Source: Candidatus Aenigmatarchaeota archaeon (GTDB lineage: Archaea; Aenigmatarchaeota; Aenigmatarchaeia; QMZP01; QMZT01). From it: a DNA stretch of 64,000 nt. The stretch is from NCBI GenBank assembly GCA_043808015.1, contig JAZDFI010000008.1, forward strand, positions 13,271-77,270, given 5' to 3'. The notes beneath the pieces were generated by a model that worked only from the letters and a program-made list of their open reading frames with translations, had not been told where the DNA came from and searched no databases. The position numbers and the translations under genes were made by a program. Below are positions 8,405 through 48,704 of this stretch, one piece after another; position 1 is the first letter of the stretch, and each line of letters starts with the position of its first letter.

Positions 8405-9545
8405 ATGAGATTTAACATTCTGCAATATCTGCCTAAAGAAACAAAGATAATGATTGACAAAGATTTAGCGCAAATTCTATTTGCCAATAAAAAACTTTGC
8501 GAATTTTCCAGAGAATACGGAATCGGCTTAAAAAATATGAGCAGATACAGAAACTGCACCCGCTCGATTCCTATAAAATTATTTCAAAAAATAGCTCAAA
8601 ATTCTCCCATTAGAATGGAAGAATTCCAAGGAAAGATGCGAATTAAAATAAACAGAATGGGCAAGTATGTCAAAATAGGACCTGTTATAAACATTGATGA
8701 AAAGTGGGTATATATTTCGGAACTCATTAAAGGTGATGGTTATATCCCGTCTACTTACTGGTATATAGTTTTTGTTAATAAAAATGAAAATTTGATTAAT
8801 GTTGTCAAGAACTTTTTTTTTATCTTTGGGCTTGCCTGAAAAACAAATTGATATTCGAAGAAGATCAGATGCAACATTCCTTACAGTCAGATCATCTCCT
8901 ATTGCATACATCCTCAACGGAATACTTGGAGTGCCTGTTGGGAAGAAGGGCGAGATCGGTATCAAAAAGTTTGTTATGAATGATAAAATATTGTCGGTGG
9001 CGGCCGTTAGAGGGGCATTTGATGCGGAAGGTGCCGCTACATTCACCGGGTCGCGGAGGATATCCATAACGTCAAATAGTCAAACATGGCTCCTATATTT
9101 AAGTAAAATATTGAAGAATCTCGGTATAAAATCCACAATATATGAAGAACGGAAAGGTAGAAAAAAACCGATATATCGTTTGTTTGTGCAACATATTATT
9201 AACATTCGCAGGTTTTATGAAATAGTCCAACCTCAGCATACGCAAAGGAGTAGAAAACTTAGAGAAATCATTGAAACGTACAGCAAACCATATTTTGGTG
9301 TCGGGTATCTGAGGAAACCCATACTTCTTTCGATAAAATCAGGAAATACGAGAAGATCAAAAATAGCAGAAGACATATCACAAAATCCTATAACAGTTGG
9401 AAATAATATCAAATGGTTAAGAAAAAGAGGACTGATAAGGCCTTCAAAAATGGTTTATACGAACAATGGTGGCTTCTATGAATATATTTTGACAGAGATG
9501 GGGCTGAAATACCTAAGAGATGACACTCTCTCTTTTTTTGATTAG
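8405..9545 (+). pseudogene. Free-standing double-motif LAGLIDADG endonuclease-like gene with N-terminal HTH and C-terminal winged helix, interrupted by a frameshift
   Basis: ORF 8405..8839 carries motif 1 (SELIKGDGYI). ORF 8799..9545 carries motif 2 (AAVRGAFDAEGAA) and a wHTH-like tail (ITVGNNIKWLRKRGLI). The frames switch at a T9 run (8813..8821). The region is visibly AT-rich. Confidence 0.6.
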
Positions 9546-20382: not shown

Positions 20383-20547
20383 TAGCCCCGGGCGGATTCG
20401 AACCGCCGTCAACCGGTTTCTCCCGATTCGGGTTTTTGCTGAAGCTTTTTATTAAAAAGCTTCGTCCAGAGCCGGTTATCCTTAACCCCCCTCTCAAATC
20501 GCTTTAAGAAAAATTTTCAAAGGGATTGGCCACTAGACTACGGGGCT
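20383..20547 (-). tRNA. tRNA-Gln(CUG) with two introns (D-loop and canonical 37/38)
   Basis: Hand fold of the reverse complement: AGCCCCG-TA-GTCT-AGTGGCCAA-[44 nt]-GGAT-A-ACCGG-CTCTGG-[48 nt]-A-CCGGT-TGAC-GGCGG-TTCGAAT-CCGCC-CGGGGCT-A. The spliced product is 73 nt. Confidence 0.75.
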
Positions 20548-21422
20548 ATATTCAACATTCTTCTTACGTGCTTTATATTATTAAATCTTATGTTTGTTTT
20601 ATATTTTTCTATCTCCTCCTTTTTAGAGAGGAAAAATTGATCTAAAATTATTTTAGATGGAGAAAAACCAAGTGATATTAAACCACTTCTCGCGTCAAAA
20701 AGCAAATTTTTAGATTTATTTTTAAAGGATATTCTCAATAATTTTCTATCTCGTCTTGACATTCTAAATATTGATCCATCTGTATCTATCAAACCTCTTA
20801 TACATGATTTTAAAAAATTGGTATCAGTTTTTATCCATTCAGGTATTCCAACATTATTCACTTTTTTATTACCGTTTTTTAACCCAAAACTTTCCAATAT
20901 TTTTATAATTTCTTTGCTGTATACAGTTATGAATATTTCATTTTTTCTCATCTCGATTTTTGAATTTATTTTAAAAATGTCATCTACCAGAGGTTTTACA
21001 AAATTCAATAAATAATCTCTTTCTGTTTTCAAATCTCCAGCTATTTTTAACGCATATACGCCCTTTTCTCCGTTCCAGTAGAGATTACCATCGCCTAAAA
21101 TTATCCCTATGATTTCAGCCAATTCGATTGATTTTTCAGGAATCATAATTTTTTTGGTTTTACCGGGGGAATTTTTACCTCCCAGTACTTTGCCCCAATT
21201 GTCTTCCAGTTTTTTATCGATATGTTTGTAGAATTCAACTTCGGCAACCTGACACAATTTTTTAAAAACTTCTGAATTTAACGATACTTTTTCATTGAGT
21301 AAATCTATTCTCAAATAATCTTTACTAACTCCCACCATTTTACTCAATTGCAGCCATGTTTTATTTCTTTTCGCTTTCAATATAAGTTCCCTCTGCTTAC
21401 CATTTTTTAATATTACCCGCAT
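20538..21422 (-). CDS. Free-standing double-motif LAGLIDADG endonuclease-like protein with N-terminal HTH
   Basis: Motif 1 AEIIGIILGDGNLY, motif 2 IRGLIDTDGSIF. Very AT-rich coding sequence. The last 10 nt, including the TAG stop, overlap the 5' end of tRNA-Gln. Confidence 0.7.
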   Translation of the reverse strand: MRVILKNGKQRELILKAKRNKTWLQLSKMVGVSKDYLRIDLLNEKVSLNSEVFKKLCQVAEVEFYKHIDKKLEDNWGKVLGGKNSPGKTKKIMIPEKSIELAEIIGIILGDGNLYWNGEKGVYALKIAGDLKTERDYLLNFVKPLVDDIFKINSKIEMRKNEIFITVYSKEIIKILESFGLKNGNKKVNNVGIPEWIKTDTNFLKSCIRGLIDTDGSIFRMSRRDRKLLRISFKNKSKNLLFDARSGLISLGFSPSKIILDQFFLSKKEEIEKYKTNIRFNNIKHVRRMLNIAP

Positions 21423-21573
21423 TAAATTATTTAGTTTTTCTCACTTATAAATTTCCTTGTACACTGGACTACATATTAAAAAGTAAAATAATGTCAAATT
21501 ATTGTAACTTTTTAGTGATAAAACTATTTATAAATAAAAAAATCAAGTATTTACAATAAAACGGGTGACAGGT

Positions 21574-22953
21574 ATGGACTTCGGTTTCGAGAGCTTCGAT
21601 GCCGGTTTTGCAGGCTTTGACGTGGATGTGGAAGACTTCCATATCAGCAAAAAGAAGAAATACGACAGGATATGGAAGGTTGGTGCTGGCGGCAGCGTGT
21701 GCTCCAAACCTGTCATTGATGGCAATGTAGCTTACTTTGGGTCGCTTGATCATAATGTCTATGCTATTGATTTGAATACCGGCAAAGAGCTTTGGAGATT
21801 AAAGACTAACGGCCTTATACTTGATTCCTCTCCATCTCTGCATGATGGAGTGCTGTTCATCGGAACCTTTGGTCACGACGTTCATGCCATAAACGCTTAT
21901 GAAGGAACCGAGTTGTGGAAATTCCGTGCAGGAGCGGAGATAAACTCCAGACCTCTCGTTTTCAACGATATGGTATTTTTCACGTCAAAGAACGGCTACA
22001 TGTATGCTGTGAGCGAATCCTCTGGAAAGGAGCTGTGGCGCTTCAGGACGGGAGCGGAAATGGTTTCAGCACCGACCCAATACGATGGCAAAATAATAAT
22101 CGGCTCATACGACGGATACCTTTATTGTGTTAATATCGACGGTAAGGAACTCTGGCGCTTCAGAACAGGAGCGGAAATAGAAAATGACGATTATTTTCTC
22201 ATAGATGACGGCATAATATACTTCGGCAGCTTCGACAACAATCTTTATGCCGTGGACATAAAGACAGGCCGTGAAGCATGGCGCTTCAAAACGGGCAAAT
22301 ACGGCAACTGCGGCGTGCCGAGGATGCACAAAAAAGTCATATATTACGGATCGAGGGACGGTATATTCTACGCCATAGACTCCATTACGGGAAAAGAAAC
22401 CTGGCGCTTCAGCACAGGCAAAGAGATAATAGACAAGGGCCCCCTGGTATACAAAAACAAAATCTATTTCGGCGCGGGCGACAACAATGTTTATTGCCTG
22501 AACCTCGAAGGCGAAGAACTCTGGCGCTTCAAGACCAGCGGCGGAGTTTACACGTCTGTAGTTGAGCACAAAGGTACGCTCTACTTCGGCAGCTGGGACT
22601 GCCACCTTTACGCAGTCGATTCAGCTACGGGCAAAGAGGTGTGGCGCTTTGCGACTAGCTCGCTTACGCCAGCGCCGTTGCCGCCTGCATACGAATGCTT
22701 TGAAGTGGAAATCAAAAAAGGCGCTCACATAGAGGACGCGATATCTGAAGAAAAATATTCCAGTAAAAAACACGATCACGTTTCTCTTTCAAACTACCAG
22801 ATAACGAGCGAGTATTCGACTAAGAGCGAATACAAGCAGAAGAGCGATTACGACGCCCATTGGGTAATGTTTGAAGGTATACTAAACGAGGAGGAACTGA
22901 CATGTCTTTCGAATTTGGTGGATTTGAATCAGCGGACTTTGATGTCGAGCTAG
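21574..22953 (+). CDS. 8-bladed PQQ-like beta-propeller repeat protein, paralog 1
   Basis: Eight repeats of G-K-E-L-W-R-F-(R/K)-T-G spaced about 40 aa apart. No signal peptide. Acidic F/D-rich N-terminus. ATG at 21574 (the track start 21565 is GTG). Confidence 0.75.
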   Translation: MDFGFESFDAGFAGFDVDVEDFHISKKKKYDRIWKVGAGGSVCSKPVIDGNVAYFGSLDHNVYAIDLNTGKELWRLKTNGLILDSSPSLHDGVLFIGTFGHDVHAINAYEGTELWKFRAGAEINSRPLVFNDMVFFTSKNGYMYAVSESSGKELWRFRTGAEMVSAPTQYDGKIIIGSYDGYLYCVNIDGKELWRFRTGAEIENDDYFLIDDGIIYFGSFDNNLYAVDIKTGREAWRFKTGKYGNCGVPRMHKKVIYYGSRDGIFYAIDSITGKETWRFSTGKEIIDKGPLVYKNKIYFGAGDNNVYCLNLEGEELWRFKTSGGVYTSVVEHKGTLYFGSWDCHLYAVDSATGKEVWRFATSSLTPAPLPPAYECFEVEIKKGAHIEDAISEEKYSSKKHDHVSLSNYQITSEYSTKSEYKQKSDYDAHWVMFEGILNEEELTCLSNLVDLNQRTLMSS

Positions 22954-24254
22954 AAGATATCGAAATTAAAAGAACGAAAAAATTCGACAGGATGTGGGAA
23001 GTCGGCTTCGGCGGCAGCATCAACAACGGAGTAAGGCTTGTTGACGGCATAATATATTTCGGAGCCATGGACAACTACGTTTACGCTGTCGACGCATCGG
23101 ATGGCAAGGAAGTTTGGAAATTCAGGACAGGCGACGGCATATGCGAAAGCACGCCGGAAGTCTCGGGAGGCATAGTGTACGTCGGTTCTTTTGATCATAA
23201 TCTTTACGCGATTGACGCCAAGACTGGTACGATGAAATGGGCTTTCAGAACAGGCGGCAAGGTAGACGCATCCCCCATCGAAAGCGAAGGGATTGTTTAT
23301 GCCGGCTCAAAGGACTGTTATATCTATGCCGTTGACTGCAAGTCTGGCAAAGAAGTATGGCGCTTCAGAACAGGAGACGAGATAGCCTCGGCTCCGACAC
23401 TCCATGACAACGTGATTTTCAACGGCTCTTTTGACAAGAATTTCTACTGCCTGAACAAGAAAACGGGCAAGGAGATTTGGCGCTTCCGCACTGGTGGGGA
23501 AATACACAACGACAGGCCTTTCCTCGTGGTTAATGAAAGAGTATTTTTCACGTCATTTGACAGCCATCTTTACTGCGCTGATGTTAAAACGGGTAAAGAA
23601 ATATGGCGTTTTAAGACCGGACGATACGGCAACGCTGGTAGTCCTGCGTATAACAACGGAGTCATATATCACGGTTCCAGAGACGGCATATTCTATGCAA
23701 TTTCACATGAAGGCAGAGAGTTGTGGAGATTCAGAACAGAGAGAGATGAACCTATAGACGTAATACCACTGATATACAAAAACAGGATATATTTCGGAGC
23801 AGGTGACGGTAACTTTTATTGTCTTGATCTGAACGGAAAGGAAATGTGGAGATTCAGAGCTTCACACAACATTTACACTTCTGCGGCCGTGTTTAACAAT
23901 GTGATATTTTTCAATTCGATGGATTGCCACTTATATGCGCTGGACGCGGACACCGGAGAGGAAGTGTGGAGATTCGCCACGTCGACGATGACAATCTCAC
24001 CATTACCGCCGCCTTATGCATCCTTCAAACTCGAGGTCCGTAAATCACAAATATCTGAACATTTTGATATCAAAGAAAAATACAAGAAAAGCAAAGAAGA
24101 AACAGTGTCGCTGTCCGATTACCACATCAAAAGCGATTATGCAACAACTAGCGAATACAAGCAAAAAAGCGACTACGACACGCATTGGGTCATGCTCGAT
24201 GAAGTGTTTGCCGACGAACCTGAAATTTTCTGCGGAATTCTGAAGAAAGCCTGA
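22902..24254 (+). CDS. 8-bladed PQQ-like beta-propeller repeat protein, paralog 2
   Basis: Same architecture as paralog 1. The start is preceded by GAGGAGGAA and lies 52 nt inside the 3' end of paralog 1. Confidence 0.75.
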   Translation: MSFEFGGFESADFDVELEDIEIKRTKKFDRMWEVGFGGSINNGVRLVDGIIYFGAMDNYVYAVDASDGKEVWKFRTGDGICESTPEVSGGIVYVGSFDHNLYAIDAKTGTMKWAFRTGGKVDASPIESEGIVYAGSKDCYIYAVDCKSGKEVWRFRTGDEIASAPTLHDNVIFNGSFDKNFYCLNKKTGKEIWRFRTGGEIHNDRPFLVVNERVFFTSFDSHLYCADVKTGKEIWRFKTGRYGNAGSPAYNNGVIYHGSRDGIFYAISHEGRELWRFRTERDEPIDVIPLIYKNRIYFGAGDGNFYCLDLNGKEMWRFRASHNIYTSAAVFNNVIFFNSMDCHLYALDADTGEEVWRFATSTMTISPLPPPYASFKLEVRKSQISEHFDIKEKYKKSKEETVSLSDYHIKSDYATTSEYKQKSDYDTHWVMLDEVFADEPEIFCGILKKA

Positions 24255-24336
24255 CAATGCTTTTTAAGCAAAGGCCCGTTAAATTTTATTTAGCTTTTAT
24301 GGCTCTTATTTAACAAAATAAGACAAAGTGATAAAT

Positions 24337-25554
24337 ATGGCGAACGAGGACATTCGGAAGCGACGGCTGAAAGATATAGTCGAAGAACTCGACAACTTCC
24401 GCGGGCGCCACACGGAGCTAATATCTGTTTACATACCAGCAGGATTCAACCTCTACAAGGTGGTCGAGCAGATAAACAGCGAGAAATCTACGGCCCAGAA
24501 CATAAAGTCGAAGACGGTTCGCAAGAACGTCATGTCCGCGCTGGAGCGCATAACACAACATCTCAAGCTCTACAAGCAGACGCCTCCGAATGGCCTGGTC
24601 ATTTTCGCAGGCAACATTTCCGAGCGTGAGGGCGTTGACGACATAGAAATATACGCTCTGGAGCCGCCGGAGCCGCTTAACCAGCGGCTTTACAGGTGCG
24701 ACCAAAAGTTTGTCCTTGACCCGCTGAAAGACCTCATACGCGAGCGCGAGATATTCGGCATAGTTCTTATAGACAAGTCAGAGGCCGACATCGGCCTGCT
24801 GCACGGCAAGAAGGTCAGGCCGCTCAAGCACCTGGACTCGATGGTGCCGGGCAAGACTGAAGCGGGTGGCTGGTCGCAGGCACGATACGCTCGAGTGCGC
24901 GAAGGCCTGCTGAACGACTTCATGAAAAAAGTCGGCGAAATCGCTTCCCAAAATTTCAGCGACCAGAAGGATTTGCTGGGCGTGATTGTAGGAGGACCCG
25001 GCCCGATAAAGGAAATGTTCGCGAGAGGCGATTTCCTGAGATACGACTTCAAGAATAAAATAATCACGGTAGTCGACACGTCTTATATGGGCGAATACGG
25101 CCTCGAGGAAGCGGTCAATCGTGCCGAGGAGGCGCTCAAGGAAGCGAGCGTCATGAAAGAGAAACGAATTCTCATCCGCTTTTTCAACGAGCTCGGCAAG
25201 GATTCCGGCCTGGCGGTATATGGTCTCAAAGAGACCGTGGAAGCGCTCAAATCAGGAGTCGTCGAGTTGTTAATGGTTTCAGAGCATTTGGACTGGGTTA
25301 AAGCAAACATAAAATGCCTCAATTGCGGCGAGGAAAGGGAAGTCGTAATGCTGCGGGACAAGCTGGAGAGCCTGAAATGCGAAAAGTGCAGCGAGCTCTA
25401 CGAGATTCTGGCAGAGAAAGACCTTACGGACGAGATAATCAAGATGGCCGAGGAAATGAACACGAAAGTCGAGATGGTTTCCGCCGACACGAAGGAAGGC
25501 GCGCAACTGAAAGACATGGGCGGAATCGGAGGGATTCTCAGGTATAAGGCTTAG
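24337..25554 (+). CDS. prf1: Peptide chain release factor aRF1 (GGQ position reads GGW)
   Basis: NIKS (AQNIKSK) and YxCxxxF (YRCDQKF) are present. The middle domain reads VPGKTEAGGWSQARYARV where aRF1/eRF1 have ...GGQSxxRFxRL. A zinc-ribbon insert sits in the C-terminal domain. ATG at 24337 (the track start is GTG). Confidence 0.85.
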   Translation: MANEDIRKRRLKDIVEELDNFRGRHTELISVYIPAGFNLYKVVEQINSEKSTAQNIKSKTVRKNVMSALERITQHLKLYKQTPPNGLVIFAGNISEREGVDDIEIYALEPPEPLNQRLYRCDQKFVLDPLKDLIREREIFGIVLIDKSEADIGLLHGKKVRPLKHLDSMVPGKTEAGGWSQARYARVREGLLNDFMKKVGEIASQNFSDQKDLLGVIVGGPGPIKEMFARGDFLRYDFKNKIITVVDTSYMGEYGLEEAVNRAEEALKEASVMKEKRILIRFFNELGKDSGLAVYGLKETVEALKSGVVELLMVSEHLDWVKANIKCLNCGEEREVVMLRDKLESLKCEKCSELYEILAEKDLTDEIIKMAEEMNTKVEMVSADTKEGAQLKDMGGIGGILRYKA

Positions 25555-40753: not shown

Positions 40754-40784
40754 TTTTATCGCGTGTTTTTCTGAAAAAATTTTA

Positions 40785-40903
40785 AGCGGAGGGAGGGAGT
40801 TGAACCCCCTTATGCCGGTATCTGCTCAGGATGACGCAGATTGCATCTGCGTCCGTCGCTTAGTCCGCTGCAGCCGGCCACATGGCCGTTTTGTTACCTC
40901 CGC
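40785..40903 (-). tRNA. tRNA-Cys(GCA) with a 48-nt intron at 37/38
   Basis: Hand fold: GCGGAGG-TA-ACAA-AACGGCC-ATGT-G-GCCGG-CTGCAG-[48 nt]-A-CCGGC-ATAA-GGGGG-TTCAACT-CCCTC-CCTCCGC-T. The discriminator is U73, the Cys identity element. Confidence 0.75.
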
Positions 40904-41038
40904 TTGTTTTCGGCTTTGTCTTGGTTATAATGTGTAATAATTACATAGCATATAGATTATTAAAAATTACATTTTTCCCGTTTCCTTGGAAATGGAAGGA
41001 TAATATATATTTATGTAAAATTTCCATCTTAATTTTGT

Positions 41039-46400: not shown

Positions 46401-47992
<1,592 letters not shown>

Positions 47993-48668: not shown

Positions 48669-48704
48669 GAAACATTGGCGAGTTGTCCTGACAAAAAGGA
48701 TCTG
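48669..48704 (+). promoter_or_regulatory. 5' arm of the 23S processing stem
   Basis: GAAACAT-TGGCGAGTTGTCC-TGACAAA-AAG-GATCTG pairs with 51817..51855. Helices of 6, 7, 13 and 7 bp are separated by 3-nt bulges (bulge-helix-bulge-like). Confidence 0.7.

Follow-up and report, generated by a model that had tools for sequence, protein, structure and literature searches.

A LAGLIDADG endonuclease gene that ends inside an archaeal tRNA-Gln gene as a probable member of a mobile cassette family colonizing tRNA-Gln and tRNA-Glu genes

We have analysed a stretch of 64,000 nucleotides (nt) from a Candidatus Aenigmatarchaeota archaeon (GenBank assembly GCA_043808015.1, contig JAZDFI010000008.1, positions 13,271 to 77,270; henceforth the window), in which a gene for a LAGLIDADG homing endonuclease runs directly into a tRNA-Gln(CUG) gene. 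The segment of ∼1 kb that carries the endonuclease gene is probably the resident copy of a family of mobile cassettes, each with a free-standing, two-motif LAGLIDADG homing endonuclease, that colonize tRNA-Gln and tRNA-Glu genes, and this family appears to reside mainly in genomes labelled DPANN archaea. The cassette is likely to have been inserted in the D-arm region of the tRNA, such that a complete tRNA gene stands directly downstream of the endonuclease. The architecture, as read from the loci compared, is shown to follow the order: leftover copy of tRNA positions 1–21/25, TATA box, open reading frame (ORF) without a stop codon of its own, and complete tRNA, of which the first 10–15 nt are read as supplying the last codons and the stop. 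Our confidence in the detailed mechanism of targeting and immunity is much lower than in this reading of the element as a whole.

The ORF opens with the ATG at 21422 and runs on the minus strand to 20538, encoding 294 amino acids. Its 3′ end reads ATA GCC CCG TAG, in which A20547 is position 1 of tRNA-Gln(CUG) and the TAG, at 20540–20538, corresponds to U8-A9-G10, confirming the coordinates of an original prediction, made from the sequence alone, that the stop codon lies within the tRNA. It was likewise correct that ∼1 kb of AT-rich DNA separates the tRNA from divergent PQQ-propeller genes: the endonuclease gene is located between the two, and its G + C content (GC) is 0.292, compared with 0.495 for the flanks and 0.495 for the whole window, while its GC at third codon positions (GC3) is 0.264, compared with 0.64 ± 0.09 for the 49 long ORFs of the window, i.e. 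∼4 standard deviations under the mean. The prediction overlooked both introns of the tRNA gene and the family-wide nature of the ORF/tRNA overlap. The features of the locus are as follows.

20383..20547, minus strand: tRNA-Gln(CUG) gene, 165 nt, with two introns (spliced product compared with locus L085)
20526..20547, minus strand: tRNA exon 1, positions 1–21, 22 nt
20482..20525, minus strand: D-loop intron, 44 nt, position 21/22 (boundary ambiguous by 2 nt owing to an AA repeat)
20466..20481, minus strand: tRNA exon 2, positions 22–37
20418..20465, minus strand: anticodon-loop intron, 48 nt, canonical position 37/38
20383..20417, minus strand: tRNA exon 3, positions 38–73
20538..20547, minus strand: ORF/tRNA overlap, 10 nt; tRNA positions 1–10 supply ..(AT)A GCC CCG TAG
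20538..21422, minus strand: LAGLIDADG homing-endonuclease gene, 294 amino acids (ORF list, Pfam); the last three residues and the stop are encoded by the tRNA
20571..20612, minus strand: TATA-like stretches within the ORF, close to its 3′ end: TTTAATAATATAAAG at −38..−24 and AAAAATATAAAA at ∼−60..−49 from tRNA +1
21444..21451, minus strand: TATA-like box TTTATAAG, 22–29 nt before the ATG
∼21452..21474, minus strand: decayed, intron-free D-arm copy, ∼positions 7–25, ATGTAGTCCAGTGTACAAGGAAA compared with CCGTAGTCTAGTGGCCAAGGATA in the tRNA
20484..21494, minus strand: segment of ∼1011 nt that is absent from locus L087, which has 87 nt instead (leader and tRNA positions 1–20)

The tRNA 5′ end, AGCCCCG UA GUCU AGUGGCCAA.., pairs with ..CGGGGCU-A at 20389–20383. 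Removal of both inserts leaves 73 nt with the anticodon CUG, which are identical at 73/73 positions to the uninterrupted tRNA-Gln of L085, a close relative, and the cloverleaf elements of the spliced product were identified by hand and by script; judged on these features, the gene is a functional-looking, doubly interrupted tRNA-Gln(CUG). By eye, a relaxed bulge-helix-bulge can be drawn for the D-loop insert (AUCC/GGAU helix with 3-nt bulges) and for the anticodon insert (CUCU/GGAG helix with GGA and AAA bulges), but both are absent from the minimum-free-energy fold. The introns, of 44 and 48 nt, contain no ORF. Because two inserts interrupt the gene, tRNA finders fail on it: default ARAGORN reported zero tRNAs in the whole 64-kb window and, with introns allowed, mis-called this one as tRNA-Leu; the Rfam tRNA model was silent at the locus at the thresholds used, and a search at an expect value (E) ≤ 1 gave a spurious tmRNA-like match to the tRNA 3′ half only.

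The junction is a trait of a large family. Genomes labelled Aenigmat-, Nano-, Woese-, Pace-, Iain- and Micrarchaeota contain many homologues of ∼300 residues that are 40–67% identical, and at least 431 matches were obtained among species-representative genomes. We surveyed the junction in 80 genome loci with a homologue, basing the tree and isoacceptor counts on 49 of these and the test for an upstream repeat on 57 non-redundant loci. A tRNA-Gln or tRNA-Glu is found at or just past the end of the ORF in ∼79 of the 80 genomes. The scripted parse succeeded in approximately three-quarters of the loci, with the tRNA either inside the ORF or 0–20 nt after its stop: in most parsed loci the tRNA starts 10 or 15 nt before the stop, and in a few it starts 0–20 nt after it. 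The unparsed loci show a Gln or Glu tRNA by eye, bar L034 (5′ fragment only), and every tRNA found is either Gln (CUG/UUG) or Glu (CUC/UUC). In each of the first three contexts inspected, one syntenic with the window and two from unrelated neighbourhoods, the ORF ends inside tRNA-Gln(CUG). Moreover, 44 of 49 ORFs are open up to the tRNA, compared with 31 expected from base composition (P ∼5e-6), and the folded part of the protein stops a median of 4 codons before tRNA +1. The odd C-termini of the family (AP*, SPVV*, APIV*, APWCSGQI..) are thereby explained, as they are the tRNA 5′ end translated in two frames.

Within the family, neighbour-joining protein clades coincide with the isoacceptor, the nearest neighbour being of the same type in 49/49 cases, and a single genome can have both a tRNA-Gln and a tRNA-Glu occupied, each by its own copy. 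In 58/60 loci the endonuclease gene has a higher AT content than the DNA on either side; its GC tracks that of the host with a slope of only 0.41, and 6/80 loci have N-terminally truncated genes that are missing 55–95 residues. A scan of viral contigs found distant LAGLIDADG relatives only, and nothing supporting a viral vector. Members are also present in bins labelled Hadarchaeota (L039), Thermoplasmatales (L038) and Methanosarcinales (L046/L056/L063); these labels could reflect mis-binning, loose naming or a real spread beyond DPANN.

The original prediction called for a comparison with related genomes, and this found the insert to be missing from at least 10 orthologous loci. Relatives were fetched from metagenomes via the neighbouring DUF498 protein, and in L085–L092, L093 and L099 the tRNA-Gln(CUG) adjoins DUF498 with no endonuclease gene; in some of these relatives, DUF498 is 96–98% identical. 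At this tRNA-Gln/DUF498 locus, therefore, the window and L001 are filled, and L085–L093 and L099 are empty. In the closest empty site, L087, both the PQQ side and the DUF498/GDT1/FEN1 side are 88–91% identical to the window, and the blastn breakpoints (L087 1277↔21495 and 1365↔20483) delimit the absent segment. The coexistence of filled and empty alleles among relatives is as expected from the gain-and-loss cycle of a homing endonuclease, a cycle that the sequences of the truncated loci would also fit. The earlier proposal of a tRNA-targeted mobile endonuclease is thus supported, the gene being neither universally present nor host-like in composition.

In many loci, positions 1–21/25 of the tRNA are repeated without an intron ∼35 nt before the ATG, and a TATA-like box comes next (for example, AGCCCCGTAGTCTAGTGGTCAAGGAaaagTTTATAAA...ATG in L003). 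When compared with shuffled upstream sequence, a copy of positions 1–22 is significant in 22/57 loci at p ≤ 0.01, and in 17 of these at p ≤ 0.001; it ends 32–40 nt before the ATG in 18 of the 22. Many of the non-significant best matches fall at the same distance from the ATG, which suggests that these are older, decayed copies. Near-perfect copies are seen in L003, L005, L012, L016, L022, L025, L036, L044, L069 and L072, and fresh copies are preceded by TATA-like boxes of their own at −25 to −38, as expected of native tRNA promoters. A duplication of the tRNA 5′ segment, which the original prediction had proposed as a check, is therefore clear in the family and decayed in the window, at ∼21452–21474: an overlapping 22-mer (∼21457–21478) matches at 13/22 positions (p = 0.009 against shuffles) and lies at the family-typical distance from the ATG, and L001 has a homologous relic, TTAGTTCAGTGGTCAAGGATAT, at the matching position. 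In a MAFFT alignment of the window upstream spacer with the empty sites, the placement of the relic is ambiguous, such that its left boundary is approximate. In most loci, a TATA-like box can be seen by eye in the interval that separates the repeat from the ATG, and that of the window, TTTATAAG, is a candidate promoter for the endonuclease gene.

The arrangement of L025 (5840–6000 and 6900–7020) bears on the site of insertion. Here, a complete, intron-free and endonuclease-free tRNA-Gln(CUG) is followed 3 nt on by a 21/22-identical copy of the tRNA-Glu 5′ segment; next comes an older, decayed D-arm-like box with a TATA box, then the endonuclease gene, and lastly a working tRNA-Glu(CUC) that contains an intron. 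The displaced copy stands where the resident tRNA-Glu would begin. The insert therefore interrupts the original tRNA gene, its left boundary falling at ∼positions 21–26. Leftover copies of two different ages suggest that this locus was invaded serially.

By its motifs and modelled fold, the protein is a monomeric, two-motif LAGLIDADG endonuclease of the I-DmoI-like type, with predicted activity. It matches Pfam LAGLIDADG_3 with 37.3 bits (cut-off 22.5), it carries the motifs ..IIGIILGDGNL.. and ..IRGLIDTDGSI.., and the catalytic aspartates, Asp111 and Asp215, are invariant in an alignment of 30 homologues. The AlphaFold model has a mean predicted local distance difference test score of 91, with low confidence solely for the last few, tRNA-encoded residues; it comprises an N-terminal helical domain (residues 1–72), a flexible or disordered linker (76–88) and a two-domain LAGLIDADG core (99–290), in which the tandem alpha-beta-beta-alpha-beta-beta-alpha fold superposes on solved enzymes. 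The closest structures from Foldseek and a PDB profile search are I-Tsp061I (Foldseek E = 4e-8; target-normalized template modelling (TM) score 0.72), I-DmoI (TM score 0.60–0.71; 1e-5 in the profile search) and intein endonuclease domains; superposition of the model on I-Tsp061I and I-DmoI gives target-normalized TM scores of 0.65–0.72. An exact-protein look-up among contigs returned no match, NCBIfam holds no specific family for the 294-residue protein, and the WhiA models score below their cut-offs on it.

From these observations, a mechanism can be proposed. The enzyme would cut an endonuclease-free tRNA-Gln(CUG) near the D arm and anticodon stem, roughly within positions 15–37; the putative target is placed near the junction of the two because the repeat homology ends at positions 21–26, and a ∼22-bp site centred there would include the anticodon, thereby accounting for the isoacceptor-specific clades. 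Repair of the break would copy the cassette from a filled allele, using the intact tRNA as the right homology and the upstream 5′ repeat as the left; since both arms are derived from the tRNA, transfer should be independent of the surrounding genes. The resident 5′ segment would end up displaced upstream, and a complete tRNA would follow the endonuclease, such that the host, keeping a working tRNA, would lose nothing. As to the origin of the upstream copy, its position in L025 and the native-looking promoters favour a native segment that has been displaced; the evidence from acceptor pairing is mixed, and is considered below.

The tRNA itself could be expressed in either of two ways. Transcription may start at the native promoter, in which case the ∼1-kb leader would be removed by RNase P and the mRNA would then lose its stop codon; alternatively, TATA-like sequences within the last part of the ORF may direct it, and those at 20571..20612 are a candidate internal tRNA promoter. 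A search for an internal promoter at a fixed distance revealed no sharp positional peak across loci. The conserved C-terminal motif GFSNxKHxxR calls for no such promoter: it lies in confidently modelled helices, and so protein structure suffices to explain it. I-TevI, which regulates its own expression, provides a model for a further idea: by analogy, and as speculation, the D-arm-like box beside the endonuclease TATA box might serve as an autoregulatory operator.

The intron state of the tRNA varies independently of the presence of the endonuclease. Among the empty alleles, L085, L088/89 and L092 are intron-free; L086, L090 and L091 have a D-loop intron only; L087 has the anticodon intron only, which is nearly that of the window; and L093 and L099 have both, although the D-loop insert of L099 is at a different position, 15/16. 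The tRNA of L001 carries a D-loop intron together with a very similar anticodon intron. D-loop introns thus occur in approximately half of the endonuclease-free alleles of the window's relatives and in both filled alleles. Across the family, there is no intron in 21 of 49 endonuclease-linked tRNAs (43%), and approximately half of these tRNAs are without a D-loop insert. The D-loop intron was therefore rejected as a requirement for the endonuclease, as it is missing from about half of the linked tRNAs and often present in alleles that have no endonuclease.

Both introns of the window tRNA-Gln fall within the presumed target or at its margin, and there are several independent D-loop inserts, which do not all share one position; moreover, the tRNA-Glu(UUC) of Methanopyrus kandleri has introns at the same two positions (PMC5829648). 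It is conceivable, though on balance we doubt it, that the D-loop (21/22 and 15/16) and anticodon introns are kept because they split the endonuclease site, that the ensuing arms race helps to drive the fragmentation of archaeal tRNA genes, and that the niche of the cassette is the 5′ leader trimmed by RNase P. If true, this leader would join introns and inteins as a third niche of the ‘self-removing’ kind.

The age of the window copy bears on how the locus should be read. The ORF is intact with its catalytic residues kept, whereas the upstream repeat is heavily decayed, which makes the copy either an old resident or one imported as an already-old cassette. AT-richness is not evidence of a recent foreign insertion here: the trait is family-wide, and the L001 homologue is equally AT-rich (GC 0.28, compared with 0.505 in its flanks). 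Neutral mutational equilibrium is also insufficient to explain it, given that the non-ORF DNA of the window has a GC of 0.45, compared with 0.29 for the gene. The decay of the repeat relative to the ∼10% divergence of the flanks excludes that the cassette simply entered an L087-like allele in recent times. Furthermore, insertions into the same target gene are always syntenic; hence, vertical descent with repeated loss and independent homing look alike.

Several of these observations weigh against a mobile cassette with a D-arm target. The endonucleases of the window and L001, which occupy the same tRNA-Gln site, are 64% identical, and the neighbouring host proteins are 49–79% identical, which would also be compatible with a gene maintained through long vertical descent. 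The window repeat, at 13/22, is far more diverged than the flanks are from the empty allele. The proposed target is deduced solely from the point at which the repeat homology ends and from the isoacceptor specificity. Acceptor pairing gives a mixed answer as to which 5′ copy is native: the upstream copy is the better match to the 3′ acceptor strand in L007 and L012, but the poorer one in L022, L071 and L072. Lastly, the intron-free linked tRNAs (21/49), some of which have a consensus D arm (for example, L018), weigh against introns as immunity and leave escape from self-cleavage unexplained.

In one alternative, the gene is a domesticated host factor, a conserved DPANN protein such as a DNA-binding regulator or a maturation factor for tRNA-Gln/Glu, that is co-inherited and co-transcribed with its tRNA, the D-arm-like box being its operator. 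Intact, full-length ORFs at 40–67% identity across several phyla, strictly isoacceptor-specific clades, a host-like divergence from L001, and a D-arm-like box whose spacing from the TATA box and ATG is fixed, including in loci that have lost the acceptor part, would all be in keeping with it. We nevertheless consider it unlikely: the gene is dispensable, being absent from the 10 or more orthologous loci that include relatives with a DUF498 96–98% identical; truncated copies exist; and the gene has a codon composition that looks strongly foreign. The catalytic aspartates are missing from known domesticated LAGLIDADG regulators, for instance WhiA, whereas both are kept here, and the extra domain is N-terminal rather than a C-terminal helix-turn-helix. 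As for chance juxtaposition, or an artefact of annotation or assembly, the window alone would accommodate it, as a stop-free run of three codons up to the tRNA has p ∼0.7; it is refuted by the comparative data, with the arrangement found in ∼79 of 80 independent genomes and the excess of ORFs that are open to the tRNA (44/49 compared with 31 expected, P ∼5e-6), and we give it practically no credence.

Two further explanations take the duplicated tRNA segment as their starting point. The upstream 5′ copy could be the true exon 1, with everything from the TATA box through the D-loop insert forming a giant bulge-helix-bulge intron that encodes an I-DmoI-like enzyme; indeed, the nearest structural relatives are archaeal intron-encoded enzymes, the repeat homology often ends at, or a few nt past, the D-loop intron position 21/22, and the fresh upstream copies keep a native-looking promoter. 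Against this, the downstream copy is conserved with a perfect 7-bp acceptor stem, the upstream copy is without its acceptor part in the window and many other loci, most upstream copies run into exon-2-like (GGA..) rather than intron sequence, and about half of the linked tRNAs, having no D-loop insert, offer no 3′ splice site there. The ORF, moreover, is not inside an intron and lies upstream of tRNA +1, so a giant intron is very improbable. Direct repeats of a tRNA gene segment around an insert are also the classic signature of an integrative element, and such repeats do flank this one; the tRNA repeat would then be an attachment site and the endonuclease leftover cargo. However, the insert is ∼1 kb with a single LAGLIDADG ORF, there is no recombinase within it or integrase nearby, ∼80 genomes share this minimal architecture, the repeat corresponds to the tRNA 5′ part and abuts a promoter at a fixed distance, and the viral contigs yielded distant LAGLIDADG relatives only, leaving an integrative remnant barely credible.

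Returning to the mobile cassette, its closest analogue in logic is the mobile ORF hybrid genes of fungal mitochondria, known from atp6 of Allomyces macrogynus and from atp6, atp9, cox2 and nad3 of Glomus, in which a LAGLIDADG or GIY-YIG ORF enters the gene together with a C-terminus copy of foreign origin, and the native C-terminus is displaced (PMC3630166). Both systems combine a free-standing endonuclease ORF with a copy of a gene terminus and a displaced native fragment; in both, the ORF is sometimes in phase without a stop of its own, and filled and empty sites occur in close relatives (PMC3630166). As in those genes, two copies of a segment of the target gene flank the ORF (22/57 loci at p ≤ 0.01, with the window copy decayed). 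The cassette differs in that its host gene is an archaeal chromosomal tRNA rather than a mitochondrial protein gene, that the 5′ end is duplicated with the endonuclease upstream (a mirror image), that rescue would occur at the RNA level, and that cassette subfamilies are dedicated to four isoacceptors across whole phyla.

Other free-standing or archaeal endonucleases share part of this picture. SegB of phage T4 is a free-standing GIY-YIG homing endonuclease in a tRNA gene cluster, which cuts within the tRNA genes of relatives that have no endonuclease, and which is passed on together with its flanking DNA; it belongs to another nuclease family, acts between phage genomes, and has neither an ORF/tRNA overlap nor a duplicated tRNA segment (PMC2330249). 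I-DmoI, I-Tsp061I and I-PorI are archaeal, target stable-RNA genes and are nearest to the cassette enzyme in sequence and fold, but I-DmoI-type ORFs lie inside rRNA bulge-helix-bulge introns, whereas the cassette ORF precedes the mature RNA and is no part of it, neither of the two tRNA introns contains an ORF, and the cassette protein has the additional 72-residue N-terminal domain. In collaborative, or trans, homing, a free-standing endonuclease is associated with an ORF-less intron, as in T4 mobE/I-TevIII (PMC2790892). The cassette resembles such cases in having a free-standing endonuclease that adjoins a gene with an intron splitting the likely target and possibly conferring immunity. The introns of collaborative homing, for which cyanophage psbA is a further case, are group I, whereas those linked to the cassette are protein-spliced archaeal introns that are independently polymorphic and absent from 43% of the linked tRNAs, so collaborative homing is at most a possible parallel for the link with introns. 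In the full-text literature, of which our coverage was incomplete, we found no description of a LAGLIDADG gene abutting an archaeal tRNA-Gln or tRNA-Glu; the cassette is apparently undescribed, although given that coverage an earlier description is possible.

If correct, the mobile cassette would define a widespread element (at least 431 matches among species representatives) with four isoacceptor-specific clades, and would show that the coupling of an endonuclease to a duplicated gene terminus, a strategy of protein genes in fungal mitochondria, extends to tRNA genes of archaea. It would also link selfish endonucleases, in a testable manner, to the puzzling non-canonical introns of archaeal tRNAs, and would be relevant to the fragmentation of archaeal tRNA genes. 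There are consequences for annotation: standard finders either overlook the linked tRNAs or call them wrongly, such that bins seem to be without tRNA-Gln or tRNA-Glu, and the endonuclease ORFs seem to have odd C-termini such as AP* and SPVV*. For enzymology, the family offers a ready panel of natural meganucleases with related, but maybe distinct, specificities.

Interrupted tRNA genes are not confined to this locus. The window contains a tRNA-Cys(GCA) at 40784–40904 (minus strand) with a 48-nt intron, and a tRNA-Lys(CUU) at 54657–54767 (plus strand) with a 36-nt intron, both seen solely by intron-permitting ARAGORN; all three tRNA genes of the 64 kb are therefore interrupted. The tRNA-Gln genes of some relatives (L082, L067, L095 and L096) have T-loop inserts (GGTTCGAA|...|ATCC) plus D-loop inserts and, judging from these, tRNA-Gln genes of the relatives are hot spots for non-canonical introns.

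On the far side of the cassette, positions 21565–25554 (plus strand) hold two tandem, paralogous PQQ/beta-propeller genes, which are ∼49% identical and divergent from it, with a third ORF (24328–25554) after the two; L001 and the relatives with empty sites have these genes in the same order. An archaeal 16S–23S rRNA operon is located at 46401–47839 and 48693–51828 (plus strand), with no tRNA detected in its 850-nt spacer; the 23S match covers 3136 nt against a model of 2987 positions, and so may hold an insertion. A second LAGLIDADG_3 gene, of a different family and without an adjoining tRNA, lies at 8405–9545 (plus strand; E = 3.7e-13) and is apparently split by a frameshift into ORFs 8405–8839 and 8799–9545; with a GC3 of 0.337, it is the only other composition outlier among the 49 long ORFs.

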